Assembly (NCBI GenBank): GCA_965248235.1
Contig: CBDFIU010000004.1
Coordinates: 1,175,112-1,239,111, forward strand
Source: Bryobacterales bacterium
GTDB taxonomy: Bacteria > Acidobacteriota > Terriglobia > Bryobacterales > UBA6623
DNA length: 64,000 nucleotides
Direction: 5' to 3'
Part shown: in pieces, positions 16,143 to 62,547 of the stretch
How positions within the stretch are numbered: the stretch's first letter is position 1
Layout of the letters: the number at the start of each line of letters is the position of its first letter
Notes under the pieces: generated by a model
Database searches by the model: none
What the model was told of the DNA's origin: nothing
What the model saw: only the letters and a program-made list of their open reading frames with translations
Translations under genes and position numbers: made by a program

Positions 16143-19100
16143 GTGCCAACCTCTTCCGTCAAGGCCGCGGCCGTTGTCGCCGAGAAGCCTTCTGTTGCTC
16201 GTGATCTTGCTGACATCCTCGGCGCCCACAAACGCGGCGATGGATACCGTCACGGCAATGGCTACATCGTAACCTGGGCCATCGGCCATCTAGTCGCCCT
16301 CGCCGAGCCGCATGAGATGAATGCGGACTGGCGCGTTTGGCGACGCGACACGCTGCCGCTGTTGCCAAGCGAGTGGCCGCTGGTCGTCTACGAACAGAGC
16401 CGCGACCAGTTCGAGGTCGTGCGCAGAATTCTCACGAGCCCCAAGGTCGGCCGTGTCGTCGCCGCCACGGACGCCGGCCGCGAGGGCGAACTGATTTTTC
16501 GCTACATCTACGAAGCCGCCGGTTGCAACAAAGAAGTCGACCGCTTGTGGATCTCGTCACTGACACCCGACGCGATTCGAGAAGGTTTACGCACTCTGCG
16601 GCCTTCGAGCGCCTATGACCGCCTAGCCGACGCCGCGCGCGCCCGCAGTCGCGCCGATTGGCTGGTCGGGATGAACCTCTCGCGAGCCTATACCCTTGAC
16701 TGCAATGTGAATCTTTCCGTTGGGCGTGTACAAACACCGACGCTGGCGATGTTGGTCGAGCGGGAGCTGGCGATTCGGAATTTCTTAACTGAAGATTATT
16801 TGGAAGTTTTGGCGACGTTCGAGCCAGCCGAGAAAGCTGCCGAGGACGGCGCTTATCGCGGCACGTATTTTCAGCAAGGCGCCGAGAGCGAAACGGGGAC
16901 AGAGGCGGCCTCGGAGAAACTCACCCCGGCTGAAGGTCAAGACGCGAAGTCATCCCACGAGGCGAAACGCGATACGCGGCTCCCCGCCGACGGGGAGCTT
17001 GCGCAACAGATCATCGGGCGCGCGCGGGCCGGTGATGCGCGCATCGAGTCGATCGAGCGCGAGACGAAGCGCATTGGCCCGCCGCGTTTCTACGACCTCA
17101 CCGAGTTGCAACGTCACGCGAATCGGCTCTACGGTTTCAGCGCGAAACGAACTCTCGAATTGGCACAGACGCTTTACGAAAAGCACAAGCTGCTGACCTA
17201 CCCGCGTACCGACAGCCGACATTTGTCCAAGGATGTGGCGGCGACCCTCGACCAAGTCGTCGCGGCCGTCGCCGAGCCCTATCAGGATGCGCTCGCCCCC
17301 GGGACCGGCAGCCGACCGCTGAACCGGCGCTTCGTCGACGACGCCAAGGTCAGCGATCACCACGCCATTATTCCCACGACGGTGCGGTCGTCGCTCCCGG
17401 CGGGCGGCGACGAGGCGAAGATCTACGATCTGGTTTGCCGACGTCTGCTGAGCGCTTGGCACAAGGACCACATTCTCGCGGTGACTAATGTGATCACCTC
17501 CGTGACGTCACCGGGTGAAGACGGGTCGGAACTGATGGTTGACCGCTTTTTCAGCTCCGGCACGTCGGTCGAGCAGGCGGGCTGGAAAGTGCTGGACGCT
17601 CCGTTCCCGAGAACAGGCGTTTCGTCTCGCGGGTCCGGACAGGAACCGCAACAGCAACTGCCCGCCGGACTTGCCGAAGGGCAACCGCGACTTGTGAGCG
17701 ACGCCGAGGCTGTGACGAAGAAAACTCGGCCGCCGCGGCGTTTCACGGAAGGCACGTTGCTGACGGCGATGGAATCCGCCGGGAAGACCCTCGAGGAAAA
17801 GGAGCTTTCCGACGCGATGAAAGATCGCGGGCTGGGCACCCCCGCCACGCGCGCCGCGATTATTGAAACGTTACTGCGGCGCGAATACATCGCCCGAAAG
17901 GGCAAGTCTCTCGAAGCATTGGAGAAAGGGATTCAGTTGATCGGCTCGGTGCACCCGGCGGTTAAGAGTCCGGCCATGACGGGGGAATGGGAAGCCGAAT
18001 TGCGCAAGATGGAACGCGGCGAGGTGGAGTTTGACAGCTTTATGAGGCGCATCGAAGACTATGTCCGAGAGGTTGTCGGCGGTCCGAGAGCTAAACCCTT
18101 CGAGGGCCTTCCCGCCAAGGCGATGCGTGAGCCACAAGCGGCCGCGGCGGCGCATGTGGGAACCCGCGGGGCAGCCGGTTTCGAGCAAGCGCCGGCGATT
18201 ACCGCTCCGATTCCCTCTGTCGGCCCGGGCCCGCCCGCCGACGCGAGTAACGGCCACGTTGTGCAAGCATCCGCGGGCGGGAATGTGCCTGCCCGCAATG
18301 GGAAGTGGACCGGCGATCTACTCGACCTGTTGCAATCGGCCTTCGGTTTTGAAGGGTTTCGGAAGTATCAACAGGATGTGTGCGAGGCCGTGCGGGGCGG
18401 GAGGGACGTCCTGCTGGTGATGCCGACCGGGGCCGGAAAATCGCTCTGCTACCAGCTACCCGGGTATGCCCGCGAGGGGGTGACGCTTGTAGTCAGCCCG
18501 TTGATCGCGCTGATGGAAGACCAAGTCGGGAAGCTGAAGCAGATGGGCTTTCGCGCCGAGCGCATTCATTCGGGGCGTGACCGTGAGGCGAGCCGTGAAG
18601 TTTGCTTTCGCTACCTGGCGGGTGATCTCGATTTTCTCTTTATTGCCCCGGAGCGGCTGGCGGTGCCCGGCTTTCCCGAAATGCTCGCTAAGCGCACTCC
18701 GGCGCTGATCGCCATCGACGAAGCCCATTGCATTTCCCAATGGGGACATGATTTTCGCCCCGAGTACCGGCGACTTGGGGAGCGGCTGCCGATGCTGCGG
18801 CCCGCGCCTGTGATCGCCATGACGGCGACGGCGACGCCTCTGGTCCAAGACGACATCGCCGAACAATTGGCGTTGGAAAACGGGCTGCGATCGATTCACG
18901 GTTTTCGCCGTGAAAACATCGCGGTGGAAGTGGTTGAACTGACGCCGAGTCAGCGGCCCCCGGCGGTGGCAAAATTGCTGGAGGATGCCGCGCGGCGTCC
19001 GGCGATCGTTTATGCGCCGACCAGAAAGTCGGCCGAGGCGGTGGCGGCGGAGCTATCCGCGCTGTTTCCCGCCGCCGCCTATCACGCCGGGATGCTGCCG

Positions 19101-20363
19101 CGGGTGCGCGACCAAGTGCAGGCGGGCTTTCTGGGGGGCGGGTATGAAGTGATTGTCGCGACGATCGCTTTCGGGATGGGGATTGACAAACCCGATGTCC
19201 GCACGGTTGCTCATACGGGTTTGCCGGGCAGTATCGAAGCCTACTATCAGGAAATCGGCCGCGCCGGCCGCGACGGCAAGCCTTCCCGGGCCGTGCTGAT
19301 GTATTCTTGGTCGGACCGCAAGACCCACGAATTTTTTCACGAACGTGACTACCCGCCGATCGCCGAGCTGGAGGAGATCTACAAACAACTTCGCGCCGAG
19401 CCCGAACCGCGACGCAATATCGAGCGTCGCTTGAAGATGGACCCGATTGTCTTTGAAAAGGCGATCGAGAAATTGTGGATTCAAGGTGGCGCGCTGATCG
19501 ATCCGGAGGAAAATATTCAACGCGGCCGCGACGGTTGGAAGCCGGGCTATCAGAGACAGTCCGACCACAAGCTGGGTCAGCTCGATCATATTGTTCACTT
19601 CGCCGAGGCGAATGAGTGTCGGATGTTGGAGCTGGTACGACACTTCGGCGACCAAGAAGACTCGCAAAAGCCGTGCGGCGTGTGTGACATCTGCGCTCCC
19701 GAGGCGTGCGTCGTACAGCGCTACCGTTCACCGAGCGCCGAGGAAAAGATCGCTATTGACGACATGGTCAAGACCCTCAAGGCGCGCGACGGCCTCTCCG
19801 TCGGCCGCCTCCACGAGCAGGCGCTGTCGGCGGCGCTGCTGGAGCGTAAGGCGTTCGAAAAATTGCTGGCGGGAGCGGCCCGCGCCGGTCTTGTCAAGAC
19901 GGTTGTCGACGCCTTCGAGAAAGAGGGTCGTCGCATTGAATACCGGCGCGTTTTCTTGAGCGAGGAGGGCCGAAGTCTGACGACGTCGGCGGGGGATTTC
20001 GTGACCTTGGCCGCCGAGGCCCCTCGGGCGCCGCGCAAGAGAAAGAAGAAGGCGGCGAAGCGGAAGGTTGCCGCGACGGGCAAACGCCGAGCGAAGGCCG
20101 CGGCGGGGGCGGCGGCTCCTGATGGGATGTCGGAAGCGCGCGCCGACGCTGATTTGATCGAGCGGCTGCGGAATTGGCGTTTGATCCAAGCGAGAGTGCA
20201 ACGCACGCCGGCGTTTCGGGTGTTTCCCGATCGTACTCTCCACGCCATTGCCCGCTACCACCCCGCGAACGAGGCGGAGTTGTTGCAAGTTCCTGGCATT
20301 GGTCCGCGCCTGGCGGGCAAGTTCGGGAAGACGATTCTTGCGATTGTGGCTGGTAAGAAGTAG
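16143..20363 (+). CDS. Fusion protein: type IA DNA topoisomerase (Topo III-like) + RecQ helicase (with zinc-binding, RQC-like and HRDC regions)
   Basis: One 1406-codon ORF. Topo IA part: VAEKPSVARD, ATDAGREGELIFRYIY, LLTYPRTDSRHL (Tyr353 at 17199-17201). An Ala/Pro/Gly-rich linker covers about 18060-18300. RecQ part: FGFEGFRKYQ, MPTGAGKS, DEAHCISQWGHDFRPEY, CRM...CGVCDIC, and a C-terminal HRDC (RTPAFRVFPDRTLHAIARYHPANEAELLQVPGIG). Confidence 0.9.
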   Translation: MPTSSVKAAAVVAEKPSVARDLADILGAHKRGDGYRHGNGYIVTWAIGHLVALAEPHEMNADWRVWRRDTLPLLPSEWPLVVYEQSRDQFEVVRRILTSPKVGRVVAATDAGREGELIFRYIYEAAGCNKEVDRLWISSLTPDAIREGLRTLRPSSAYDRLADAARARSRADWLVGMNLSRAYTLDCNVNLSVGRVQTPTLAMLVERELAIRNFLTEDYLEVLATFEPAEKAAEDGAYRGTYFQQGAESETGTEAASEKLTPAEGQDAKSSHEAKRDTRLPADGELAQQIIGRARAGDARIESIERETKRIGPPRFYDLTELQRHANRLYGFSAKRTLELAQTLYEKHKLLTYPRTDSRHLSKDVAATLDQVVAAVAEPYQDALAPGTGSRPLNRRFVDDAKVSDHHAIIPTTVRSSLPAGGDEAKIYDLVCRRLLSAWHKDHILAVTNVITSVTSPGEDGSELMVDRFFSSGTSVEQAGWKVLDAPFPRTGVSSRGSGQEPQQQLPAGLAEGQPRLVSDAEAVTKKTRPPRRFTEGTLLTAMESAGKTLEEKELSDAMKDRGLGTPATRAAIIETLLRREYIARKGKSLEALEKGIQLIGSVHPAVKSPAMTGEWEAELRKMERGEVEFDSFMRRIEDYVREVVGGPRAKPFEGLPAKAMREPQAAAAAHVGTRGAAGFEQAPAITAPIPSVGPGPPADASNGHVVQASAGGNVPARNGKWTGDLLDLLQSAFGFEGFRKYQQDVCEAVRGGRDVLLVMPTGAGKSLCYQLPGYAREGVTLVVSPLIALMEDQVGKLKQMGFRAERIHSGRDREASREVCFRYLAGDLDFLFIAPERLAVPGFPEMLAKRTPALIAIDEAHCISQWGHDFRPEYRRLGERLPMLRPAPVIAMTATATPLVQDDIAEQLALENGLRSIHGFRRENIAVEVVELTPSQRPPAVAKLLEDAARRPAIVYAPTRKSAEAVAAELSALFPAAAYHAGMLPRVRDQVQAGFLGGGYEVIVATIAFGMGIDKPDVRTVAHTGLPGSIEAYYQEIGRAGRDGKPSRAVLMYSWSDRKTHEFFHERDYPPIAELEEIYKQLRAEPEPRRNIERRLKMDPIVFEKAIEKLWIQGGALIDPEENIQRGRDGWKPGYQRQSDHKLGQLDHIVHFAEANECRMLELVRHFGDQEDSQKPCGVCDICAPEACVVQRYRSPSAEEKIAIDDMVKTLKARDGLSVGRLHEQALSAALLERKAFEKLLAGAARAGLVKTVVDAFEKEGRRIEYRRVFLSEEGRSLTTSAGDFVTLAAEAPRAPRKRKKKAAKRKVAATGKRRAKAAAGAAAPDGMSEARADADLIERLRNWRLIQARVQRTPAFRVFPDRTLHAIARYHPANEAELLQVPGIGPRLAGKFGKTILAIVAGKK

Positions 20364-22397: not shown

Positions 22398-22503
22398 GGC
22401 ACGCTGAAAGCGTGCGCCACGTCGGGGGTGGTTGTCCGTTCAGCCTCTCGGTAGAATGAGTCTTGGTCCGTCAAGAGGCTTCGATCGCCCTCCTCCCGCC
22501 GCC

Positions 22504-23913
22504 ATGCCCAACCCGCGAACATTTTTCGTCCGTAATTTCGGTTGCCGTGCGACGCAGGCCGACGGGGCGGGACTGGAAGCGGAATTGGCGGCGCGTGGGT
22601 TGGAGGCCGGTAGCGCGGCTTCGGCTTCCGACGTTGTCATCGTCAACACCTGTACCGTCACTCACCAGGCCGACCAGGACGCTCGTCAGACAATTCGGCG
22701 CATTCATCGGGAAAATCCCGAGGCCGAGATTCTGGTCACCGGCTGCTACGCCCAGCGCCGGCCCGATGAGTTGGCCGCGCTGGAGGGCGTCAAGTGGGTC
22801 GTCGGCAATTCTCACAAGAGCGCGATCGGCGAGATTGTCGCGCCGCAACTGGTACGGATTGCTTCCGAACTCGCTCCGCGCGGACCGGCGTTCCACGGTG
22901 AGATTCGCGATGGCGGTGTGCTGGTCGGCGAGACTTTCGAGAACGTGTCCCGGCTTGCGGCGCAAGTGGTCGACGCCGGACGCGACCGCAGTCGCCCGAA
23001 CTTGAAAATCCAAGACGGCTGCAACAACCGTTGCGGTTTCTGCATTATTCCGACCGTAAGGGGGCACAGTCGCAGCGCCGAGGCGGAGAGCGTTCTATCG
23101 AGCATTCGCCGCTTGGCTCGGCATTACCCGGAAGTGGTCCTGACGGGCATCAACTTAGGGCGCTGGGGACGCGATTTGGACGGCCGACCGCGGCCGGCGG
23201 CTTTGCTGCGCCGTGTGCTGGACGAGACCGACATTCGCAAGTTGCGCCTCAGTTCAATCGAGCCGATGGACTGGACGAACGACCTGCTCGATCTCACGGC
23301 TTCGTCCGATCGCATCGCCAAGCATGTGCACATTCCCATGCAGTCGGGATCGGATAGGGTTTTGAAAGCGATGCGGCGACGTTATCGAGCGCGCCATTAC
23401 GCCGACCGCGTGGAACGAGCGCGGCGCTTGATGCCCAAGGCCGCCATTGGCGCGGATGTGATGGTCGGTTTCCCTGGGGAGACGGACGAAGATTTCGAGG
23501 CAACGCGCGGGCTTGTCGCCGATCTTCCATTTACGTATCTACACGTGTTTACTTATTCGGCTCGTCCCGACACAGCGGCGCGGGAGATGCCCGGTCACAT
23601 CGCGCCTCCCGTTAAGAAAGAACGTAATCGAATCTTGCGGGAATTGGCGGCCGAGAAGAATCTGGCGTTTCGGCGGTCGCTTGTCGGGAAGCGTTTCGAG
23701 GCTGTCACGCTGGAGCGAGCGGGCGGGACCAAAGTGTTCGCGGTGACCGACAACTACGTGACCGTCGAGCTCGACACCGCGCGGCGAGCAGGCGCGGAGT
23801 TGATTGACGTGGAAATCGGTGTTGTCGACGAGGAATCGACGAAGGCTCGCGAAATCCGCTCAGACATCGGACTGAGGGAGCTTGTGGCCGCGTCGGAGCG
23901 ATTCCGTAGTTGA
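22504..23913 (+). CDS. mtaB: Radical-SAM methylthiotransferase, MtaB-like (MiaB family)
   Basis: MPNPRTFFVRNFGCRATQADG (UPF0004 domain), the radical-SAM CNNRCGFCIIP motif, and a C-terminal TRAM-like region. The MtaB assignment is favoured by the adjacent tsaC. Confidence 0.8.
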   Translation: MPNPRTFFVRNFGCRATQADGAGLEAELAARGLEAGSAASASDVVIVNTCTVTHQADQDARQTIRRIHRENPEAEILVTGCYAQRRPDELAALEGVKWVVGNSHKSAIGEIVAPQLVRIASELAPRGPAFHGEIRDGGVLVGETFENVSRLAAQVVDAGRDRSRPNLKIQDGCNNRCGFCIIPTVRGHSRSAEAESVLSSIRRLARHYPEVVLTGINLGRWGRDLDGRPRPAALLRRVLDETDIRKLRLSSIEPMDWTNDLLDLTASSDRIAKHVHIPMQSGSDRVLKAMRRRYRARHYADRVERARRLMPKAAIGADVMVGFPGETDEDFEATRGLVADLPFTYLHVFTYSARPDTAAREMPGHIAPPVKKERNRILRELAAEKNLAFRRSLVGKRFEAVTLERAGGTKVFAVTDNYVTVELDTARRAGAELIDVEIGVVDEESTKAREIRSDIGLRELVAASERFRS

Positions 23914-23964
23914 AGCCCCGTGAGTGGGGCGGTGAGAATGCCCGTCGGACCCCCTAGAGGCGCG

Positions 23965-24585
23965 ATGATTCGCGTCAACCCGCACCGTCCCCGATGGGCT
24001 GCGGTGCGTCGCGTAGCGGCGGCGATCGGAGCCGGACAAGTCATCGCCGCGCCGACCGATACGGTCTACGGGTTGGTGGCGAACCCGTTTGATCCAGCGG
24101 CGGTTGAACGACTTTTCGCCATCAAGCGGCGCCCCGAGTCAAATCCAATTTTACTCTTGATTGATTCGCGTGAGCAGCTTGCGTTGGTCGCTCAGGATCT
24201 CCCGAAAACGTTTGACCGAATCGCCGCCCGCTTTTGGCCCGGACCGTTGACGATCGTCTTACCGGCGAGTGCGGCCGTACCCAAGACGATCACCGCCGGC
24301 ACGGGAACGGTCGCGGTTCGGTTGCCGGCGTCTCGGCTTGTGCGGTCGTTGATTCGGGCCGCGGGGCGACCGCTGACCGGCACGAGCGCGAATCTTTCCG
24401 GACGTTCGGCGGCGACAACGGCCCGGGAAGTGCAACTTCAGTTGGGCAAACGAGTCTACTATATTGTGGATGGCGGACGGTCCCGTTGGCGGCAGCCGTC
24501 GACGATTCTGAATTTGACGGGCCGAGCGCGCATCCTTCGACCGGGAGCTGTGTCTTGGGCGCAATTGGAGAAACACCTGGTATAG
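23965..24585 (+). CDS. tsaC: L-threonylcarbamoyladenylate synthase (TsaC/YrdC family)
   Basis: GQVIAAPTDTVYGLVANPFDPAAVERLFAIKRRPESNPILLLI...WPGPLTIVLP...VAVRLP...TSANLSG. The start is uncertain (ATG 23965, ATG 23938 or GTG 23920). Confidence 0.82.
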   Translation: MIRVNPHRPRWAAVRRVAAAIGAGQVIAAPTDTVYGLVANPFDPAAVERLFAIKRRPESNPILLLIDSREQLALVAQDLPKTFDRIAARFWPGPLTIVLPASAAVPKTITAGTGTVAVRLPASRLVRSLIRAAGRPLTGTSANLSGRSAATTAREVQLQLGKRVYYIVDGGRSRWRQPSTILNLTGRARILRPGAVSWAQLEKHLV

Positions 24586-35815: not shown

Positions 35816-36856
35816 TCAGAGAACGTGAATTTTCGGAGAGGTCGGGGCGACAACGGCGCCGACCTTCGCGGCCGGGACGCCCCCTTCCACTAGCTCGACC
35901 AATAAGCCCTGAGAGGCTTCCGGGGCGACCGAGATCAGCATGCCGCCCGAAGTTTGCGGATCGTAAAGCAGCCCCTCGATCACATCAGGGACATCCGGGT
36001 CCACCGTCACGGCGCATTCCGCGAAGGCGCGGTTGTTCTTCTGGCCTCCGGGGAACGTGCCCTGTTGGGCGTAGTCGAGCGCCCCGGGCAACCAGGCGAC
36101 CGCTTGGTGATCGATCTCGAGTCCGACATCGCTTCCCTCGGCCAGCTCGCGTGCGTGTCCTAGTAGGCCGAAGCCCGTGACGTCCGTGGCTGCATGGACG
36201 CCTTCGCGGCTGACGGCAGCACCCGCCACGGCATTTAACGCGGTCATCGACTCGATCATAGCCGCGACGTGCTCATCGCTCGCAAGGCCGCGTTTGAGGG
36301 CGGTGGCGATCACACCGGTTCCGAGCTGTTTCGTGAGGATTAACTCATCGCCGACGCGGGCCCCGGCGTTAGTACGGACTTTCTTGGGGTGGACCAGACC
36401 GATGACCGCGTAGCCGAACTTGATTTCGTCGTCGGCGACGCTGTGTCCGCCAATGACGGCGCATCCGGCTTCCCGGATCTTCGCCAACCCGCCCGCCATG
36501 ATTTGTTCGAGCACGTCCGGGTCGCCGTTCGAGGGATAGCAGGCAACGGCCAAGGCGGTGATCGGCTTGCCGCCCATGGCGTAGACGTCGCTTAACGCAT
36601 TGGCGGCCGCAACGGCTCCGAAAGTCGCGGGATCGTCGACGATGGGCGTGAAGAAGTCGACGGTTTCAACAAGAGCGGTGGAGTCGTCGAGTAGATACAC
36701 TCCCGCATCGTCGGATTTATCGAATCCGACAAGCACCTTAGGATTGTCTTGCCGCGGCAACCTGCCGAGGACCCGGTCGAGCAAGGCGGGATTCAGCTTG
36801 CTTGCTCAACCAGCGGTCTTCACGCCGGCTGTCAGGCGGACTTTTTGGTCGGCCAT
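35816..36856 (-). CDS. selD: Selenide, water dikinase SelD with in-frame UGA (selenocysteine) at 36808-36806
   Basis: The track ORF (35816-36784) is SelD lacking its active-site N-terminus. Upstream in the same frame: ATG 36856 MADQKVRLTAGVKTAG-TGA-ASKLNPALLDRVLG. The TGA aligns with Cys17 of E. coli SelD (GAGCGCK) and the Lys with Lys20. Confidence 0.85.
36779..36807 (-). promoter_or_regulatory. Candidate SECIS-like hairpin starting at the selD UGA
   Basis: On the mRNA strand, GAGCAAG (36807-36801) pairs perfectly with CUUGCUC (36785-36779) around a 15-nt loop. It begins within the UGA codon. Confidence 0.45.
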
Positions 36857-36948
36857 AGACCCTTGATTATGTCATAGGGTTTTGCGGACGCCGGGCTGAG
36901 CTGACGTGTTGTGTCCCGCGGCGGGAGCGTCTTTGGTAAGCTCCGACC

Positions 36949-37668
36949 ATGCGGTGTTGGGTTGTTTGGGCGGGACTCGTGTTGCCGGGCTTGCTTGTCT
37001 CGGCCGCGACACAAGAAGACAATGCACACAAACACGGGAAGCACAAAGAGCAGGGCGAACACAAGAAACACTCTCGGCCGATGCACCATCACGAGTGGTC
37101 GGTGGATGAGTGGCTGGAACGTCTGGAGTCGCCGTCGCGCGGGGCTTGGCAAAAACCCGACGAGGTGGTCGGCGCCCTGTCACTGAAAGCCGGCGAGGCG
37201 GTCGCCGATATCGGTGCCGGATCCGGCTATTTTTCGACCCGCTTCGCGCGAGCGGTGGGGACAAACGGCAAGGTTTATGCCGTTGACATCGATCATGGGC
37301 TGATCGGGCATCTTCGCGAACGGGCTTCCAAGGAGAATTTGAAAAACATGGAGGCGGTGCCGGCGGCTCCCGACGATCCGAAATTGGCGGCGGGTTCCGT
37401 GGATCTTGTTTTCATCTGCAATGTGCTGCACCATGTCGAGAATCGCGCGGGCTACTACAAGAAGCTCGCGGCGGCTCTGCGCCCCGGCGGACGTTTGGCC
37501 GTGGTGGACTTTTTCAAGCGTGAATTGCCCGTCGGACCCGGCGTCGAGATGAAGATCGCCCGCGAGGCGATGGTCGCGGAGATGCGCGACGCGGGCTTTC
37601 GGCTCGGGGCGGAGTTCAACTTCTTGCCGCACCAGTATTTCTTGGTGTTTGAGACGGGCGGGCGTTAA
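36949..37668 (+). CDS. Class I SAM-dependent methyltransferase with signal-like N-terminus and His/Lys-rich segment
   Basis: The SAM-binding motif VADIGAGSGYFSTRFA and downstream VDLVFICNVLHHV are present. The N-terminus is MRCWVVWAGLVLPGLLVSAA, followed by NAHKHGKHKEQGEHKKHSRPMHHHEW. Confidence 0.8.
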   Translation: MRCWVVWAGLVLPGLLVSAATQEDNAHKHGKHKEQGEHKKHSRPMHHHEWSVDEWLERLESPSRGAWQKPDEVVGALSLKAGEAVADIGAGSGYFSTRFARAVGTNGKVYAVDIDHGLIGHLRERASKENLKNMEAVPAAPDDPKLAAGSVDLVFICNVLHHVENRAGYYKKLAAALRPGGRLAVVDFFKRELPVGPGVEMKIAREAMVAEMRDAGFRLGAEFNFLPHQYFLVFETGGR

Positions 37669-37734
37669 GGCGAGCGGCCGGGGCTCGGTGCGGCTCCGAA
37701 CTTCTCCTAAACTTCGGTTGGCGTTGGGATCAAA

Positions 37735-38934
37735 GTGTTGCGATATCGATTTGCTCGGTTTTCTGTCGCGGTTAGCGTCGCGTCGATGTGTTTGCTGCTC
37801 GGCTCGACCGGTTGCGGAACGGACGGCGAGTCCGGTGAACCGGCCGCGGTTGAAACGGCCTTCGCGGTCCAACGTCACGTCATTCAGCCGCCCGAGTTCC
37901 CCGTCGGCGGTCCTTTCAGCCCCGGCATCCTGGCCGGTGACACTCTCTATCTGGCGGGACAGGTGGGCCGCGACCCACAGACGCGGGAGGTCCCCGAAGC
38001 GATCGAGGAAGAGACTCGGGTCGCGATGGAGAACGTTGGGCGAATTCTAACGGCCGCCGAGCTTGATTTCGGCCATCTCGTCAAGTGTCATGTCCTGCTT
38101 GACGACATGGACAATTACAAGCCGATGAACGACACCTATGCCGGCTTCTTCCCGGCTGATTATTTTCCGGCGCGGACGACGGTGGAAGTCGCGCGGCTGG
38201 CGGGCGGCTTCCGGGTCGAGGTGAGTTGCATTGCGTTTCGGGACAAATCGCGCATCAGCGTGGTACGGCCGCCGGAGGGGTCGCTCCCGGGAGCCTTGGG
38301 GCCATATTCCCCCGGCGTCATGGCCGCTGACGATCTCTATCTTTCCGGGCAGGGCGGGCGCGACCCGGCCCAGAACGGGCTTCCCGAATCGGTCGAGGCC
38401 CAAGCCGTTCAAGCGCTTGAAAACATCGGGCAAGTCATCGCGGCCGCGGGGCTCTCGGACGACGACGTCGTGTACGCAAATGCCTATTACCTGGGTTGCG
38501 ACAGCGCGCCGGCCGTTGACCGGGCCTTTGCCGCGGCGTTTCCGGAGGGCATCGATTATCCGCGATCGCGAATTTGCCTGCCGCGCCTGCCGGGAGGCAT
38601 CGCGACGGAGATCACTTTGTTCGCCGAGAGGGGTGACGGCGAGGCCGTCTATCTCGCGACACGCTCGGCCCCCGAGGCGGGCGGCGACATCGCATCCCAG
38701 ATGAGCGCGACGCTCGCGAAGTTGGGAGAGGACTTACGCCAAGCGGGGATCGGTTTCGAGCACGTCGTCAACGCCAATGTCTACCTACGCAACGTCGAAG
38801 ACTTCCAAGGGATGAACGGCGAGTTTCGAAAGGTGTTCGCCGAGAGCCCGCCGGCGCGAACGACCGTGGCGACGCTACAGCCCGAACAGGAACAGCCCGT
38901 TATGGTCGAGGTGGCGTTAATCGCGATACGGTGA
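37735..38934 (+). CDS. Lipoprotein with three tandem RidA/YjgF/TdcF-family domains
   Basis: Lipobox-like LLLGSTGC. Three RidA-like units follow: GPFSPGILAGDTLYLAGQVG...ARTTVEVARL; GPYSPGVMAADDLYLSGQGG...; and a third ending PARTTVATLQPEQEQPVMVEVALIAIR. Confidence 0.8.
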   Translation: MLRYRFARFSVAVSVASMCLLLGSTGCGTDGESGEPAAVETAFAVQRHVIQPPEFPVGGPFSPGILAGDTLYLAGQVGRDPQTREVPEAIEEETRVAMENVGRILTAAELDFGHLVKCHVLLDDMDNYKPMNDTYAGFFPADYFPARTTVEVARLAGGFRVEVSCIAFRDKSRISVVRPPEGSLPGALGPYSPGVMAADDLYLSGQGGRDPAQNGLPESVEAQAVQALENIGQVIAAAGLSDDDVVYANAYYLGCDSAPAVDRAFAAAFPEGIDYPRSRICLPRLPGGIATEITLFAERGDGEAVYLATRSAPEAGGDIASQMSATLAKLGEDLRQAGIGFEHVVNANVYLRNVEDFQGMNGEFRKVFAESPPARTTVATLQPEQEQPVMVEVALIAIR

Positions 38935-38961: not shown

Positions 38962-39477
38962 CTACCGAACAACCTCCCAAGCCAAATGCTCGAGTTCCGC
39001 GCAGAGCAGCTTCTCCCAAGCCAAGCGAACCGCCGCCGGAGATCCGGGCGTGGATACGATCACCTTGCCACGATAAACGCCCGCCGTCGCACGCGACATC
39101 ATCGCGGACGCCCCAATTTCCTCAAAGCTGAGGAGACGGAACAGCTCCCCGAAACCCGGCAGAGTCTTTTCAAGTTTGCCGCTGAGAACGTCAAACGTGG
39201 TGTCGCGGTTGGATATCCCGGTGCCGCCGTTGAAAAGAATGACTTGGGCATCGCCCGCGGCCAGCTCATCCAGGACGGCTTCGAGCCGCCGCGGCTCATC
39301 TTTGAGAATCCGAGCGGAATGGAGCAGGTGCCCCGCCGCCATAATCCGGTCGCAGAGGTAGTTGCCGCTCTTGTCGGTCTCGCGCGTACGAGTGTCGCTG
39401 ACGGTGACGACCGCGACCCGGACCGGCCCGCGCCGAGAGGCTTTGTCCTTATGTTCCTGAGCTGTCGGGGAAGGCAT
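38962..39477 (-). CDS. moaB: Molybdenum cofactor biosynthesis protein B (MoaB/MogA family)
   Basis: VAVVTVSDTRTRETDKSGNYL...VILFNGGTGISNRDTTFDVL...LPGFGELFRLLS...TPGSPAAV. The start is chosen at ATG 39477. Confidence 0.8.
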   Translation of the reverse strand: MPSPTAQEHKDKASRRGPVRVAVVTVSDTRTRETDKSGNYLCDRIMAAGHLLHSARILKDEPRRLEAVLDELAAGDAQVILFNGGTGISNRDTTFDVLSGKLEKTLPGFGELFRLLSFEEIGASAMMSRATAGVYRGKVIVSTPGSPAAVRLAWEKLLCAELEHLAWEVVR

Positions 39478-39607
39478 CACTCCGTGAGTCACATTGTAGC
39501 GAGTCTCCCATAACGCACTCGGCGGCGACGGGCGCTCAGCCGGTAGCCGCCCCAACCGAAAACCGGCGTCCCTCGCCGCAACTCCCGGCCGCGCTAATCT
39601 GTGTCTT

Positions 39608-45188: not shown

Positions 45189-45429
45189 CAGACTACCTCC
45201 AAAGTTTCTCTATCGACAGGGGCGGGGCGGACTCTTACGAAAAAGTGCTTTGGTATCCGAAAAATGTACGGCTGTCGGTGCACCCCAGGACAAGCGGCCG
45301 GGCGTGCACTCCCCCTGGTGGGTCTACGGATTTTCAGCCCGAGAATGCGTCCCGGCCCGACAAGTCATTGGAACCCTGGCGGCGGGTGTTACCTGATTGG
45401 ATTGTTGAACGCCCATGAAAATGGGTTTG

Positions 45430-46465
45430 GATGGGTATTTACTTGACTCAGGTGACCACAAGATGTAGGATCGGGGAAATGGAAGATTATCCTCGGAATC
45501 TGGCCGAGTTCGAGGCGCGTTTCGCCACCGAGCAGGCCTGTCGAGAGTATCTGTGTCAACTCCGCTGGCCGGAGGGTTTTCGTTGTCCGCGATGCGGGCA
45601 CGACAAAGCGTGGGCGGTGCGGACAGCGCTGCTGGAGTGCGCCGGCTGCGGGCATCAAGCTTCTCCAACGGCGGGCACAATATTTCAAGACACCCGCCAA
45701 CCCCTCCAGAGTTGGTTTCGAGCCATGTGGTGGCTCACGAGCCAGAAGAACGGGGCGAGCGCGCTGGGCTTGCAGCGGGTGTTGGGCCTGGGCAGCTACA
45801 AAACGGCCTGGACTTGGTTGCATAAGCTCCGGCGCGCCATGGTGCGGCCCGGACGCGATCGGCTCAGCGGGCGCGTGGAGGTTGACGAGACTTACTTAGG
45901 AGGCTTGGAGGAGGGCGTGCGCGGTCGCCAAACCGACGCTAAGGCGCTGATTGTAGTAGCGGCCGAGGAAGATGGTGCCGGCATCGGGCGGGTTCGGATA
46001 CGCACCATTCCCAACGCCTCCGGGGACAGCTTGATGGCCTTCGTCGGCGAGTCGATCGAACCCGGCAGCGTGGTCCATACCGACGGTTGGCTGGGATACG
46101 AACCGCTCGAAGGCGACGGCTATCGCCACGAGGTGAGCTACCTGGAGGGGCAACCGGCGCGCGCCTCGAAACTGCTCCCCCGGGTGCACCGCGTGGTGTC
46201 GTTAGTGAAGCGCTGGATACTGGGCACGCATCAAGGAGCGGTCAGTCACGAGCATCTCGACTCCTACCTCGACGAATTCGCCTTCCGCTTCAACCGCCGC
46301 AAGTCCAGAAGTCGAGGCAAGCTCTTTTACCGCCTGGTTCAACAGGCCGTCGCCGTGCCACCGGCACCCTACAAATCGCTGGTCGGAGGCACCGCGACAC
46401 GCGCTACGGACGACCACAACATGTAGGGGCTATTTCCCAATACCTGAGTCAAGTAAATACCCATC
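45430..46465 (+). mobile_element. IS1595-family insertion sequence, copy 2
   Basis: Same 1036-bp element and the same 24-bp inverted repeats. Perfect 8-bp direct repeat tgggtttg at 45422-45429 and 46466-46473. Confidence 0.92.
45479..46426 (+). CDS. IS1595-family transposase (copy 2)
   Basis: The translation is identical to copy 1. Confidence 0.88.
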   Translation: MEDYPRNLAEFEARFATEQACREYLCQLRWPEGFRCPRCGHDKAWAVRTALLECAGCGHQASPTAGTIFQDTRQPLQSWFRAMWWLTSQKNGASALGLQRVLGLGSYKTAWTWLHKLRRAMVRPGRDRLSGRVEVDETYLGGLEEGVRGRQTDAKALIVVAAEEDGAGIGRVRIRTIPNASGDSLMAFVGESIEPGSVVHTDGWLGYEPLEGDGYRHEVSYLEGQPARASKLLPRVHRVVSLVKRWILGTHQGAVSHEHLDSYLDEFAFRFNRRKSRSRGKLFYRLVQQAVAVPPAPYKSLVGGTATRATDDHNM

Positions 46466-48525: not shown

Positions 48526-48975
48526 TCAACCCTTTTTTTCAGAAAGAACCGTCGACAAGGCGGCGAAAAACTTCCGAATCATCATCTTCGAGGTCATGTC
48601 CATGAGGCGCTGGCCGACCGAGGCGATCATGCCGCCGACGCGAACGTCACCTTCGTAGTGAACAAGCGTTTCATCGGCGCCGGCTTCCTCCAGACGAAAT
48701 CGCCCGCCGCCGTTGAGGAAGCCGATCTTGCCGGTTCCCTCGACGACCAGCCGATAGCTCTCGGGTGGTTGGGGATCTTCGAGCGCAACCTTGCCGTCGA
48801 ACAAGCCCTGAACCGCCGCCAGGGCCAGCTTCATTTTCATCTTGTATTGGTTCTCGCCGATCGGATCAAGAGACTCGCAGCCGGGAAGCGTGCGCGCCAG
48901 AACCTCGGGGTCGAGCAACGCTTCCCAAACTTGTTGCCGCGGGGCCGCCAGCTTGTGCTGACCCTTGATCTTCAT
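48526..48975 (-). CDS. coxG: CoxG-like SRPBCC-fold protein
   Basis: 149 aa: MKIKGQHKLAAPRQQVWEALLDPEVLARTLPGCESL...GKIGFLNGGGRFRLEE. It overlaps the coxM stop. Confidence 0.8.
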   Translation of the reverse strand: MKIKGQHKLAAPRQQVWEALLDPEVLARTLPGCESLDPIGENQYKMKMKLALAAVQGLFDGKVALEDPQPPESYRLVVEGTGKIGFLNGGGRFRLEEAGADETLVHYEGDVRVGGMIASVGQRLMDMTSKMMIRKFFAALSTVLSEKKG

Positions 48976-49832
48976 TGAGCGCGTCCGGCGGCGGCCGCGA
49001 TCGCCCGACGAGCGAAAACCGTTGCCAGGTGGGCACGGTATTCGGCCGAGGCGTGCAGGTCCTCGAGTGCATCGACGCCCGCGGCCGCGGATTGCGCCGC
49101 CGCCCGATAGGTGTCATCGTTGGCTGGTTGGCCCTCGAGAGCACTTTCCACCGCCGAGGCACGATAAGCCTTCGAGCCCACGCCGGTCATCCCGATGCGC
49201 GCGAATGAAATCGTACCGCCGCTGACGCCGATACGCGCCGCCGCGCCGACAACGGCATAACCCGACGCCGGCTGAACGATGGTCTCGTAGGCCGTGCCGA
49301 CGCCCGCCGACTCAGCCGGGACTTGAATCTCGGTGACGATCTCGCCGGGCTCGAGCGCCGTCGTGAGAGCGTCCACGATGAAGTCGTCAATGGCGACAAT
49401 GCGTTCGCCGCCCGAGCCCACGACCTTGACACTGGCTTCGAGAGCCTGCAAGGCCGCCGGGTAGTCGGCCGCCGGGTCGGCGTGAGCCACCGCGCCGCCG
49501 ATGGTGCCGCGATTGCGTACTTGGACGTCGCCGATACCGGCCGCGGCCGCGGCGAGCATGGGGCACTTCTCGCGTAACAAGTCGGAGTGCTCCACCTGCT
49601 CGTGAGTCGTCATCGATCCGACACGAATGACGCCGCCTTCCTCGACGATGAAGTGCAGATCGGCGATGCCGCCCAGGTCGACGACTTGGGTGGGCGCGGC
49701 GAGCCGCAGCTTCATGATCGGGATCAAGCTCTGTCCGCCGGCGAGAACTTTCGCCTCGGGGTCGTCGGACAAGGCCTTCAGGGCGTCGGAAAGGGTTTCC
49801 GGAGCGGTGTAGTCAAAACTAGAAGCAATCAC
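48972..49832 (-). CDS. coxM: Molybdenum hydroxylase FAD-binding medium subunit (CoxM-like)
   Basis: 286 aa: FDYTAPETLSDALKAL...KVLAGGQSLIPIMKLRLAAP...VRNRGTIGGAVAHADPAADYPA. Confidence 0.88.
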   Translation of the reverse strand: MIASSFDYTAPETLSDALKALSDDPEAKVLAGGQSLIPIMKLRLAAPTQVVDLGGIADLHFIVEEGGVIRVGSMTTHEQVEHSDLLREKCPMLAAAAAGIGDVQVRNRGTIGGAVAHADPAADYPAALQALEASVKVVGSGGERIVAIDDFIVDALTTALEPGEIVTEIQVPAESAGVGTAYETIVQPASGYAVVGAAARIGVSGGTISFARIGMTGVGSKAYRASAVESALEGQPANDDTYRAAAQSAAAGVDALEDLHASAEYRAHLATVFARRAIAAAAGRAQ

Positions 49833-52171
49833 GACTGGCTCCTTTCGTTGATCAGATTCCAGACTTTTTGCGGTGTCATCGGAATGTCGATGTGATCGAC
49901 GCCCATGTGGGACAGCGCATCGACGACGGCGTTAACGAAGGCGGGGAGCGAGCCGATGGTTCCGGCTTCTCCAACGCCCTTGGCGCCGAGCGGATTGACG
50001 GGCGAGGGCGTCACGGTCCTTTCCGATTCGATCCAGGGCATGTCCTTGGCCTTGGGAATCGCATAGTCCATGAAGGTGCCCGTGAGCAGCTGGCCGTCCT
50101 CGCTGAAGACAACCTCTTCGAGAAACGCCGGACCCAGACCTTGCGCTACCCCGCCGTGCAATTGGCCGTCGACCAGCATGGGGTTGATGACGTTACCAAT
50201 GTCGTCGACGGCGACATAGCGCAGGATTTTCACCTGGCCGGTATCGGAGTCGACTTCGACGGTGCAAATATGCGCACCGAAAGGGAAGGCGAAGTTTGGC
50301 GGTTCGAAGAATCGCGTCGCCGAAAGGCCGGGTTCCGTGTCGGGCGGCAACTTCTGCGCCACGGCGGCCTCGAAGGCCAGGGCTTGGAAGGTGAGCGTCG
50401 TCTCGGTTTCACTGGAGGAGAAGACACCTCCCGCGAACTCCACGCTGTCGGGAGAAGTACCGATGATGTGGGCGGCGTATTTCTTGCCCTTGGCGACAAC
50501 GTCCTGGAGCGCGAGGTGAACGGCGGTGCCGCCGATCGCCATGCCGCGACTGCCGAACGTCCCCACACCCCAGTGAACCTTGCCGGTGTCGCCGTGAACC
50601 ACAACGACATCGTCGATGGTGACACCCAGGGCGTCCGCCGCCAGCTGAGCGTAGGCCGTTTCCCCGCCCTGCCCGTGGGGCGAGGCCCCCGACATGACGG
50701 TAACCTTGCCGGTCGGCTCGACGCGGACGGTCGCGCTTTCCCAACCGCCGGCCGGCAGCGCCGGGGAAGGCCCGAAGGCGCAGACTTCGCCGTAGGTCGA
50801 GATGCCGAGGCCGAGCAGGCGGCCCTCCGAACGGGCTTGCTCTTGCTCGGCGAGAAAGTCTTTGTAGCCGACGTTATCGAGCGCGATATTGAAGGCCTTG
50901 GCGTAGTCGCCGCTGTCGTAACTGAGACCCGTCGCTGTTTCGAAGGGGAACTCGTCGGCGGAGGGGAAATTCTTCAGACGCAGTTCGGCGGGGTCCATGC
51001 CCAGCTTGTCGGCGAGCTTATCGACGACGCGCTCAAGCACGTAGGTCGCCTCGGGACGTCCGGCTCCGCGGTAAAGATCAGTCGGGGGCAGATTCGTGAA
51101 GGCCCCGGTGAGATCGGCGGTGAAGTTCTTGATCTTGTAGAGACCCGGGATCATGATGACGGCGAGCGTCGGGATGATCGGGGTCAGCAACTGATGATGG
51201 GCGCCGATGTCCTGCAAGATCTTGAAGCGCAGTGCCGTGATCATGCCGTCGCTGGTTGCCGCCATTTCGAGATGATCGATGTGGCCGCGGCCGTGAGCGA
51301 CTACGTTGATGCTCTCGCGACGATTCTCGATCCACTTGATGGGCTGTTTGAGATCGATCGCCGCGAAGCAAGCCAAGGCTTCCTCGGCCCAGACGTTGCA
51401 TTTGCTGCCGAAGCCGCCGCCGACCTCGGGCGCAATCACGCGAACGTGATTTTCCGGCAGGTTCAACTGCACGGCCAATTGCGTTTTGAGCAGGTGCGGG
51501 ATTTGGGTCGAGGAATAGACCAGCAGATCCTTCGTCCCTTCGTCGTATTCGGCGACGACGCCGCGCGTTTCTATCGGCGAGGGCGCCAGGCGCGGCACCG
51601 TGACCCGTTCGCTGACGACGACGTCGGCGGCTTCAAAAGCCGCGTCGGTGTCGCCGCCCTCGGCGTGGAAGGTAAAGGCGACGTTATCGTCGTATTCCGG
51701 ATGGACTTTGACCGTGCCGTCCTCGAGGGCTTTCTCGGGGTCGGCGACATAGTCGGTCGGCTCGTATTCGACCTCGATTTGGTCGACGGCATCCTGCGCG
51801 ACGTAGCGGTCACTCGCAACGACCGCCGCCACCGGGTGGCCGACGTAATACACGCGGCCTTGCGCCAAGATCGCATGGTGCGGTATGCGCAGCGTAGGCA
51901 TCGAGCCGGCGCAGGGAACCGGGCCGACTTCCTTGATGTCCTCGCCGGTATAGACAGCGGAGACGCCGGGCAGCGACGCGGCTTTCTCGATCGAAATGCT
52001 CGTGATCTTGGCGGCCACGTGAGGACTGCGCAAGACCGCGGCGTAGAGCATGCCGGGGCGAGTGACGTCGTCGACGTAAGTCGCCGTGCCGGTGATCAAA
52101 CGGGGGTCTTCGGTGCGCCGAATGCGCTGCCCCACATAGCCTTTGGTTGTCGGAGTGGTTGTCGTCGCCAT
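49829..52171 (-). CDS. coxL: Molybdopterin-binding large subunit of the xanthine dehydrogenase/CODH family (form-II CoxL-like)
   Basis: 780 aa. The active-site loop reads LYRGAGRPE (YRGAGR at 51056-51073). This is the AYRGAGR-type form-II signature, not the form-I AYRCSFR. Confidence 0.88.
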   Translation of the reverse strand: MATTTTPTTKGYVGQRIRRTEDPRLITGTATYVDDVTRPGMLYAAVLRSPHVAAKITSISIEKAASLPGVSAVYTGEDIKEVGPVPCAGSMPTLRIPHHAILAQGRVYYVGHPVAAVVASDRYVAQDAVDQIEVEYEPTDYVADPEKALEDGTVKVHPEYDDNVAFTFHAEGGDTDAAFEAADVVVSERVTVPRLAPSPIETRGVVAEYDEGTKDLLVYSSTQIPHLLKTQLAVQLNLPENHVRVIAPEVGGGFGSKCNVWAEEALACFAAIDLKQPIKWIENRRESINVVAHGRGHIDHLEMAATSDGMITALRFKILQDIGAHHQLLTPIIPTLAVIMIPGLYKIKNFTADLTGAFTNLPPTDLYRGAGRPEATYVLERVVDKLADKLGMDPAELRLKNFPSADEFPFETATGLSYDSGDYAKAFNIALDNVGYKDFLAEQEQARSEGRLLGLGISTYGEVCAFGPSPALPAGGWESATVRVEPTGKVTVMSGASPHGQGGETAYAQLAADALGVTIDDVVVVHGDTGKVHWGVGTFGSRGMAIGGTAVHLALQDVVAKGKKYAAHIIGTSPDSVEFAGGVFSSSETETTLTFQALAFEAAVAQKLPPDTEPGLSATRFFEPPNFAFPFGAHICTVEVDSDTGQVKILRYVAVDDIGNVINPMLVDGQLHGGVAQGLGPAFLEEVVFSEDGQLLTGTFMDYAIPKAKDMPWIESERTVTPSPVNPLGAKGVGEAGTIGSLPAFVNAVVDALSHMGVDHIDIPMTPQKVWNLINERSQS

Positions 52172-52182
52172 GGTTCTTCCCC

Positions 52183-52656
52183 TTATCCTTGCGCCATGGC
52201 CTTGGCGGCCGATTCAACGGATTTCACAATGTGCTGATAGCCGGTGCAACGGCAAAGATTGCCTTCGATGGCGTGCCGGATTTCGTCGCGCGACGGGTTG
52301 GGATTGTCGCCCAACAACTGCTTGACCGACATGATCATGCCGGGCGTGCAGAAACCGCACTGAAGCCCGTGTTCATTCCAGAACCCTTCTTGAATCGGGT
52401 GCAGGTTGCCATTAGTGGCCAGGCTCTCGATGGTCTCGACGTTCTCGCCGTCGGCCTGGACGGCCAACACCGTGCAGGATTTGACCGTGCGGCCTTCCAG
52501 CATCACCGTGCAGGCGCCGCAGACCGTTGTTTCGCAGCCGATGTGCGTTCCAGTCAGCCCTAATTCTTCTCGTAGAAAGTGGACCAGAAGCGTGCGCGGT
52601 TCGACTTCGCGCTCGTACTCCCGCCCGTTCACAGTCACTTTGATCGCTTTTTGCAT
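52183..52656 (-). CDS. coxS: [2Fe-2S] small subunit (CoxS-like)
   Basis: ATG 52656 has GGAGGGAG upstream. The sequence reads [15 protein letters not shown]...[12 protein letters not shown]...[10 protein letters not shown]...NLCRCTGY. Confidence 0.9.
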
Positions 52657-52822
52657 GCGCGTGGCTCCCTCCGTAGCTTCACAATGATGAACGACTGGGA
52701 AGCGCCGCGTCAAGAGATGGGGGGGAAAACACTTGAAAAGTAGGGTGCAAAGCGATGATTTGTGGATTTCGGGGGAAGGAGGGCCGGCGTGACGTTTTGA
52801 GGATCACCGATTGTCGTGCTTC

Positions 52823-55494: not shown

Positions 55495-56530
55495 GATGGG
55501 TATTTACTTGACTCAGGTGACCACAAGATGTAGGATCGGGGAAATGGAAGATTATCCTCGGAATCTGGCCGAGTTCGAGGCGCGTTTCGCCACCGAGCAG
55601 GCCTGTCGAGAGTATCTGTGTCAACTCCGCTGGCCGGAGGGTTTTCGTTGTCCGCGATGCGGGCACGACAAAGCGTGGGCGGTGCGGACAGCGCTGCTGG
55701 AGTGCGCCGGCTGCGGGCATCAAGCTTCTCCAACGGCGGGCACAATATTTCAAGACACCCGCCAACCCCTCCAGAGTTGGTTTCGAGCCATGTGGTGGCT
55801 CACGAGCCAGAAGAACGGGGCGAGCGCGCTGGGCTTGCAGCGGGTGTTGGGCCTGGGCAGCTACAAAACGGCCTGGACTTGGTTGCATAAGCTCCGGCGC
55901 GCCATGGTGCGGCCCGGACGCGATCGGCTCAGCGGGCGCGTGGAGGTTGACGAGACTTACTTAGGAGGCTTGGAGGAGGGCGTGCGCGGTCGCCAAACCG
56001 ACGCTGAGGCGCTGATTGTAGTAGCGGCCGAGGAAGATGGTGCCGGCATCGGGCGGGTTCGGATACGCACCATTCCCAACGCCTCCGGGGACAGCTTGAT
56101 GGCCTTCGTCGGCGAGTCGATCGAACCCGGCAGCGTGGTCCATACCGACGGTTGGCTGGGATACGAACCGCTCGAAGGCGACGGCTATCGCCACGAGGTG
56201 AGCTACCTGGAGGGGCAACCGGCGCGCGCCTCGAAACTGCTCCCCCGGGTGCACCGCGTGGTGTCGTTAGTGAAGCGCTGGATACTGGGCACGCATCAAG
56301 GAGCGGTCAGTCACGAGCATCTCGACTCCTACCTCGACGAATTCGCCTTCCGCTTCAACCGCCGCAAGTCCAGAAGTCGAGGCAAGCTCTTTTACCGCCT
56401 GGTTCAACAGGCCGTCGCCGTGCCACCGGCACCCTACAAATCGCTGGTCGGAGGCACCGCGACACGCGCTACGGACGACCACAACATGTAGGGGCTATTT
56501 CCCAATACCTGAGTCAAGTAAATACCCATC
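55495..56530 (+). mobile_element. IS1595-family insertion sequence, copy 3 (inside the kinase gene)
   Basis: Same 1036-bp element. The flanking 8-mers are ccgtcctt (55487-55494) and ccgtcctc (56531-56538), matching at 7 of 8. Confidence 0.9.
55544..56491 (+). CDS. IS1595-family transposase (copy 3)
   Basis: Identical to the other copies except one K-to-E change (g at 56006 versus a at the equivalent 4866). Confidence 0.88.
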   Translation: MEDYPRNLAEFEARFATEQACREYLCQLRWPEGFRCPRCGHDKAWAVRTALLECAGCGHQASPTAGTIFQDTRQPLQSWFRAMWWLTSQKNGASALGLQRVLGLGSYKTAWTWLHKLRRAMVRPGRDRLSGRVEVDETYLGGLEEGVRGRQTDAEALIVVAAEEDGAGIGRVRIRTIPNASGDSLMAFVGESIEPGSVVHTDGWLGYEPLEGDGYRHEVSYLEGQPARASKLLPRVHRVVSLVKRWILGTHQGAVSHEHLDSYLDEFAFRFNRRKSRSRGKLFYRLVQQAVAVPPAPYKSLVGGTATRATDDHNM

Positions 56531-62357: not shown

Positions 62358-62547
62358 CCAGGGATTTTTGAACGAACCGCCGCAGAACTTAAAATGTACC
62401 GTATCGTTTCAGGGGATACCCGGGGGGCCCTGCGCGAATACGGTCGTCAACGACCTGTCGCAGGCGGATTACGCGGCCTGGGTGTCGTTAGTGAGGGCGG
62501 AATGCCGGGCCGCGGAATGCGAGGCCGGTTTGTAGGTGCCCACCGGC

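Follow-up and report, generated by a model that had tools for sequence, protein, structure and literature searches.

A Sec-type selD gene called as truncated, and a candidate SECIS hairpin placed unusually far from its UGA codon

The selD gene and its neighbours

The stretch of DNA analysed here as a whole, hereafter called the window, is 64,000 nt long and carries on its minus strand a reading frame that is opened by an ATG at 36856-36854, closed by a stop codon at 35818-35816, and comprises 346 codons on translation (Table 1). Its product reads MADQKVRLTAGVKTAG, followed by the in-frame TGA at 36808-36806 and then ASKLNPALLDRVLG, which places the special residue at position 17 of 346 aa; the N-terminal peptide of the full-length protein is MADQKVRLTAGVK. 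The ORF caller returned only a 322-aa ORF from an internal TTG at 36784. An earlier reading of the same DNA, made without database searches (the original prediction), held that this ORF lacks the catalytic N-terminus of SelD, and that the gene instead starts at ATG 36856 and continues through the TGA to a 346-aa product with selenocysteine (Sec, U) at position 17. All of these positions were reproduced here, and the loop encoded upstream of the TTG matches SelD.

The assignment to the SelD family was examined with C put at position 17. In this form, the product matches the TIGR00476 selD equivalog with 373.4 bits (cut-off 125) over residues 7-314 and PRK00943 / NF002098 with 342 bits (cut-off 299) over residues 2-340. 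Among solved structures, the best relative is E. coli SelD (3u0o), with E = 9.5e-78 over residues 1-337, and close homologues of the window SelD carry PF00586 and PF02769. For the residue-level comparison we used the Cys-type enzyme 3u0o and 2yye/2zod, the Sec13Cys mutant of Aquifex aeolicus SelD. When the extended product is aligned to these Cys- and Sec-type sequences, the TGA falls opposite Cys17 of E. coli SelD (3u0o, GAGCGCK) and opposite the Sec13-to-Cys position of Aquifex SelD (2yye). The loop K-T-A-G-U17-A-S-K20 thereby aligns with G-A-G-C17-G-C-K20 of E. coli and S-S-G-C-A-A-K of Aquifex, and the lysine three residues past the TGA, Lys20, is conserved, in agreement with the placement originally proposed. 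Also conserved relative to 3u0o are the Asp-containing ATP/metal-binding motifs of the AIRS fold (SDDAGVY, TVDFFTPIVDD, SDVYAMGG and TDVTGFGLLGH).

The equivalog match, the Cys/Sec-Lys loop and the Asp motifs, by which membership of the SelD family is judged, are thus all present, and the identification of the gene as a Sec-type SelD (selenide, water dikinase / selenophosphate synthetase) is well supported. The protein resembles the Aquifex aeolicus and E. coli enzymes in its family, in the position of Sec/Cys and Lys within the N-terminal glycine-rich loop and in its Asp motifs, and nothing at the protein level sets it apart from them past ordinary divergence. Sec-containing SelD, and its self-dependence on selenium, have long been established, so that the biological gain from one more example is small. 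Among the selenoprotein families of prokaryotes, only one is more widespread than SelD (PMC13188914), and 19% of prokaryotic SelD genes have the Sec form, always with Sec at this position (PMC4561486). The window gene is thus a further case of a known type, and the finding is real but ordinary.

Divergent from selD lie a UbiE/COQ5-type SAM methyltransferase gene and a gene for a 399-aa protein with three RidA/L-PSP domains, whose position beside selD is kept in the closest relatives (L081-L089) and not in L090 or L091. The window also encodes a MogA-like molybdopterin protein and a three-subunit molybdenum hydroxylase of the xanthine/CO-dehydrogenase type, with 2Fe-2S, FAD and MoCo subunits; yqeB/yqeC-type markers of selenium-dependent Mo hydroxylases were not seen in the window.

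Table 1. Coordinates of the features discussed, in positions of the window
Feature	Position	Strand	Basis or remark
Extended -10-like box TGACATAAT, putative promoter	36866..36874	-	Ends 9 nt before the ATG; clade-A comparison
Complete selD frame, 346 codons and a stop, UGA read as Sec at codon 17	35816..36856	-	Translation, family models, E. coli SelD match
In-frame UGA (Sec17), loop K-T-A-G-U-A-S-K	36806..36808	-	Opposite Cys17 of E. coli SelD; TGA/TGC/TGT comparison
H1, 13-bp helix with the UGA in its 5' arm and a 15-nt loop	36773..36813	-	RNAfold; -20.8 kcal/mol alone
H1', weak alternative hairpin CCCG...CGGG, +19..+37	36772..36790	-	RNAalifold consensus; shares its 3' half with H1
H2, candidate SelB-binding SECIS, CC-U-CGGCA-GGU-UGCCG-C-GG	36752..36770	-	Loop GGU at 36762-36760; conservation, synonymous constraint
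UbiE/COQ5-type methyltransferase and triple-RidA protein	36949-38934	+	Divergent from selD
MogA-like molybdopterin protein	38962-39555	-	
Three-subunit molybdenum hydroxylase	48972-52713	-	
Type IA topoisomerase-RecQ fusion	16143-20363	+	1406-aa ORF
MiaB/MtaB-like radical-SAM methylthiotransferase	22432-23913	+	Ends in TGA
Sua5/TsaC (t6A synthesis)	23920-24585	+	Same frame, two codons on
IS1595-family copies	4355-5390, 45429-46465, 55495-56530	+	100% identity
IS1595-family copy	61322-62358	-	100% identity

Codon 17 and the start of translation in related loci

We compared codon 17 in 81 loci, consisting of the window and 80 related selD loci taken from a collection with one genome per species, and found TGA in 70, TGC in 9 and TGT in 2 of them. 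The peptide RLTxxVKxAG-[U/C]-A[SA]K is conserved on either side of this codon in the related loci. The locus thus shows the pattern by which bacterial selenoprotein genes are recognised, namely a UGA opposite the Cys of homologues with homology on both flanks. Clade A, to which much of the comparison below refers, comprises 17 distinct sequences, some of its members having been added by searching metagenomes with a degenerate DNA pattern and by three additional look-ups, and codon 17 is TGA in all 17. The same holds for the eleven closest-relative loci (69-88% amino acid identity), which also share the 16-codon N-terminus of the window gene; five of these loci are distinct contigs that share the gene order purC, selD, methyltransferase, triple-RidA, MogA-like. 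Directly upstream of the ATG, the eleven loci show a stop codon or unconserved sequence. A start past the TGA with a different N-terminus in close relatives, which the original prediction had named as evidence that would speak against it, was found in none of them.

A gene that begins past the TGA, at TTG 36784 or at another codon, and encodes a truncated SelD-like protein without Sec is what ORF callers produce, and it is also how close homologues are recorded: the nearest relatives in protein databases (67-87% identity) are all entered at 287-326 aa, and all of the 56 closest homologues in the public protein collection appear there in truncated form. The called starts, however, vary among relatives (322, 314, 294 and 287 aa), and codon 25, which is the internal TTG of the called ORF, is ATT, CTA or CTT in relatives and is not a start codon in most of them, indicating that the TTG is not a conserved start. 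In addition, codons 7-12 (R, L, T, V) keep their amino acids within clade A although the codon differs in 47-69% of the sequence pairs, a pattern of purifying selection that acts on the peptide encoded before the UGA. Such selection has kept these 16 codons and the catalytic Lys20 conserved, a conserved promoter-like box lies just upstream of ATG 36856, and a protein initiated downstream would miss the catalytic Sec/Cys-Lys loop. A downstream start is thus highly improbable, and the uniform database records show that gene callers do miss the N-terminus of SelD, as had been foreseen for the standard annotation of this gene.

The promoter-like sequence is an extended -10-like box located 7-9 nt before the start codon. 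It reads TGNCATAAT in 13 of the 14 clade-A loci displayed, with the variant TGCCATACT in L093, and was seen also in L110 and L112, while L109 is without a clear copy. The remaining upstream sequence around the box is unconserved in clade A. A simple sigma-70 scan that requires a -35 hexamer detected no promoter upstream of selD, and the box becomes visible only by comparison of relatives. This conservation suggests that the box may act as a promoter, and its position only 7-9 nt before the ATG points to an mRNA that is probably leaderless or nearly so.

TGA is the commonest stop codon among the confident genes of the window (13 of 27, including the stop of selD itself), indicating that the genetic code is standard and that TGA has not been reassigned. 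This bears on the possibility that the UGA is read as Trp, Cys or Gly, through code reassignment or near-cognate read-through, and not as Sec. Such a reading is hardly credible, given also that codon 17 alternates solely with Cys codons in homologues and that SECIS-type hairpins accompany TGA and not TGC or TGT. The central claim of the original prediction, that this selD is a selenoprotein gene whose catalytic N-terminus escapes ORF callers, is thus upheld by homology, by the alternation of TGA with TGC, by the conserved upstream peptide together with the promoter-like box, and by the truncated records of all close homologues.

The clade-A selD lineage is probably related to the Acidobacteriota. 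The nearest named homologues of a neighbouring gene are proteins from Thermoanaerobaculia/Acidobacteriota MAGs with 57-58% identity.

Hairpins at and downstream of the UGA

Positions in the RNA are numbered with the U of the UGA as +1. The original prediction had described a hairpin that starts at the UGA, in which GAGCAAG (36807-36801) forms a perfect duplex with CUUGCUC (36785-36779) around a loop of 15 nt, and had proposed it as a plausible bacterial SECIS element. The pairing and the 15-nt loop are as described, and the helix, termed H1, is longer than proposed, extending to 13 bp between 36813-36801 and 36785-36773 (-5..+8 with +24..+36). RNAfold gives -31.8 kcal/mol for 36815-36750 (z = -2.3), with 5 of 200 dinucleotide shuffles being equally stable. 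The mini-apical loop of H1, UGAAUCCC, has a G at its second position. The upper pairs of the helix (alignment columns C17-G39 and A19-U37) hold in 6 of the 17 clade members, namely the window, L081, L086, L089, L109 and L112. The 17-sequence alignment contains no compensatory changes in H1, and the synonymous diversity of codons 18-27, which encode it, is near average.

Several of these features would suit H1 as the functional element bound by SelB. No other local structure is as stable, the helix begins at the UGA and is shared by the nearest relatives of the window and by L109 and L112, and its mini-apical loop has the G in second position. The bacterial SECIS (bSECIS) model of Zhang and Gladyshev, by comparison, calls for a loop of 3-9 nt, an upper stem of 4-16 bp and a distance of 16-37 nt between UGA and loop, with a G in the first two loop positions (usually N1-G-[G/U]-N-N2) and a minimum free energy of -7.5 kcal/mol or lower (PMC13188914). 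H1 departs from this model, having a loop of 15 nt (or of 8 nt above a 2-bp mini-stem) that starts 10 nt past the UGA. Its upper pairs are moreover restricted to the six sequences named above, they lack compensatory changes, and the codons beneath them vary at an ordinary rate, whereas another hairpin, H2, is conserved instead. While the UGA occupies the A site, the ribosome encloses the 5' arm of H1; the helix therefore cannot exist during decoding of the UGA and cannot be what SelB holds at that moment. The proposal that H1 itself is the SECIS is consequently unlikely, and this part of the original prediction is not well supported.

Most clade-A members that lack the full H1 have a shorter UGA-containing helix, Hs, which pairs -3..+5 with +12..+19. 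A G.G mismatch breaks Hs in a set of sequences that contains every one with the full H1, so that H1 and Hs appear to replace each other. The RNAalifold consensus fold of the 17 sequences consists of Hs, H1' and H2. Under this three-hairpin model, we counted four compensatory pairs (three in H1' and one in H2), and 0 of 500 shuffles reached the covariation score, a result that is based on 17 related sequences with few independent events. In the window, H1' has an energy of only -3.1 kcal/mol, and RNAfold favours another fold for +13..+60 (-13.0 kcal/mol) over it. A search of the whole window against Rfam at gathering thresholds returned nothing relevant, and at relaxed thresholds the surroundings of the UGA gave a single match at chance level (E = 1.1).

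H2 spans +39..+57, 24 nt further downstream than H1, and has an energy of -8.6 kcal/mol. It was found in all 17 clade-A sequences, with 90% of the cells paired and one mismatch within the hairpin in L109. Its G-C-rich stem consists of 5 bp plus 2 bp past a 1x1 mismatch and is continuous over 8 bp in L100, L102 and L103. A compensatory change from C-G to U-A is found in L112, where it required two synonymous changes, and L093 has the intermediate U.G. Its loop occurs in the variants AGGUU, AGUUU and AGGCU, each of which conforms to the loop pattern of the bSECIS model. Constraint is also apparent at the codon level, as residues 28-34 (RVLGRLP), which are encoded by H2, form the 7-codon window with the lowest synonymous diversity of the gene (0.108 vs. 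0.434 overall). The Arg codon in H2 is always AGG, a codon that accounts for 5.5% of the Arg codons in the genes of the window. On these grounds, H2 is most likely the element bound by SelB.

One metagenomic clade-A locus, L104 (986-1063), has the TGA and the conserved sequence to approximately +40, after which it diverges fully, encodes another peptide and has no H2. The contig may be chimeric or rearranged, or the copy may have decayed.

H2 agrees with the bSECIS model in loop, stem and energy and departs from it in spacing, with the loop starting 43 nt past the UGA in all clade-A sequences that have H2. The distance would be approximately 24 nt if the 19 nt of H1' are counted as closed. Some putative bSECIS elements are known to deviate from the consensus (PMC13188914). 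Across the compared loci, nearly every distinct Sec-type locus yielded a hairpin with a G[G/U]N loop in a simple scan, compared with only 1 of the 11 Cys-type loci, where it is weak, and the mean folding z-score was -2.1 for Sec-type loci vs. -0.5 for Cys-type loci. The spacing of the SECIS-like hairpins falls into three discrete classes, with most lineages at 16-20 nt, another group at 33 nt and clade A at 43 nt. In the common 16-20-nt class, a single long hairpin comprises the SECIS-like loop and, in its lower stem, the UGA, an arrangement shared with E. coli fdhF. In the 33-nt class (e.g. L098 and L107), the 3' arm of the UGA helix doubles as the 5' arm of the SECIS-like hairpin, suggesting mutually exclusive folds.

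Compared with E. coli fdhF and the bSECIS model, the window thus combines familiar and unfamiliar features. The loop of H2 has 3 nt (5 if the flanking A-U pair is open), with G followed by G/U, and the helix that contains the UGA has to be opened by the ribosome, like the lower helix of fdhF. In contrast, the H2 loop lies at 43 nt and not within 16-37 nt, the UGA helix (H1 or Hs) belongs to a hairpin of its own instead of forming the base of the SECIS stem, and a third small hairpin is located between it and H2. One tentative explanation, to which we give rather less than even weight, is that the SECIS of clade A has been shifted to 43 nt and that melting of H1/Hs lets H1' fold as a spacer, resulting in a three-hairpin SECIS that refolds during translation. 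The unusual placement is a modest lead and not yet a result. It could interest specialists in that a SECIS outside the accepted spacing range, with an intervening hairpin, would widen the rules of SECIS-based predictors if confirmed.

Decoding of the UGA and further candidates in the window

Taken together, we consider it very probable that the locus is a Sec-type selD gene that starts at ATG 36856, is probably transcribed as a leaderless mRNA and encodes an enzyme with Sec17, with H1 burying the UGA and H2 as the likely SelB site. Transcription would start from the extended -10 promoter and yield a leaderless or near-leaderless mRNA that is translated from ATG 36856. Before the ribosome arrives, H1 (or Hs) would hide the UGA, as a counterpart of the UGA-containing lower helix of a classical SECIS, which is unwound by the ribosome (PMC13188914). 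The ribosome would then melt H1 to bring the UGA into the A site, and the freed 3' arm of H1 could refold as H1', which would leave a distance of about 24 nt to H2. Sec-tRNA would be supplied by SelB attached to the loop of H2, so that UGA17 would be read as Sec and the 346-aa enzyme would carry Sec in its catalytic G-x-G-U-x-x-K loop.

No gene for the Sec machinery was seen in the DNA surveyed. ARAGORN predicted no tRNA, including tRNA-Sec, in the 64-kb window or in 22 related loci. Pfam scans of the approximately 55 window ORFs revealed neither SelA nor SelB, tblastn with the E. coli SelA and SelB as queries had no match in the window or the clade-A loci, and the clade-A flanks contain no selA, selB or tRNA-Sec. 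In more distant relatives (e.g. L013), selA and selB flank selD. The conserved UGA and the conserved peptide upstream of it nevertheless suggest that the source organism possesses this machinery, as the original prediction had implied. The lack of visible Sec machinery genes in the 64 kb would fit a TGA that is a true stop, left in a decaying pseudogene after loss of Sec decoding or introduced by a sequencing error. However, independent assemblies contain 17 distinct clade sequences that share the TGA, selD is otherwise intact (69-88% amino acid identity, 346 codons, no indels), and the RNA structure downstream is conserved, which makes a genuine stop very improbable and leaves decoding as Sec as the preferred reading.

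The corrected gene marks the lineage as a user of selenocysteine, and its other selenoprotein genes are thus probably mis-annotated too. Among all genes of the window, no other convincing candidate for read-through of an in-frame TGA was found. A high-GC3 frame with two TGAs at 473-1234 was rejected because its translation is of low complexity and shadow-like; it is most likely the antisense of a minus-strand gene that runs off the left end of the window, possibly flhA judging from the neighbouring flhB. A second candidate, the MiaB/MtaB-like methylthiotransferase gene ending in TGA and the Sua5/TsaC gene that continues in the same frame, is probably just a pair of adjacent genes. The two are functionally linked, as both act in tRNA modification.

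Two further observations concern other parts of the window. An IS1595-family element of approximately 1036 nt (DDE_Tnp_IS1595 plus zinc ribbon) is present in four copies within 64 kb that are 100% identical, suggesting that it was probably active recently. One of these copies lies inside a flagellar export cluster, adjoining a FliR ORF (3106-3672) that matches only profile positions 58-226, and fliR may thus be disrupted. Elsewhere, a single ORF combines a type IA topoisomerase (Toprim and Topoisom_bac) with a RecQ helicase (DEAD, Helicase_C, RecQ_Zn_bind and HRDC). Both the topoisomerase and the RecQ domains are found in all of at least 120 homologues (1312-1533 aa), and most of the homologues listed align end to end. 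Among the matches listed, the named ones are entered as 'DNA topoisomerase 3' and come from Thermoanaerobaculia, Acidobacteriota or Bryobacteraceae MAGs. Since the listed homologues all carry both domains under this name, the TopoIII-RecQ fusion appears to be common in the phylum and hidden by its annotation.
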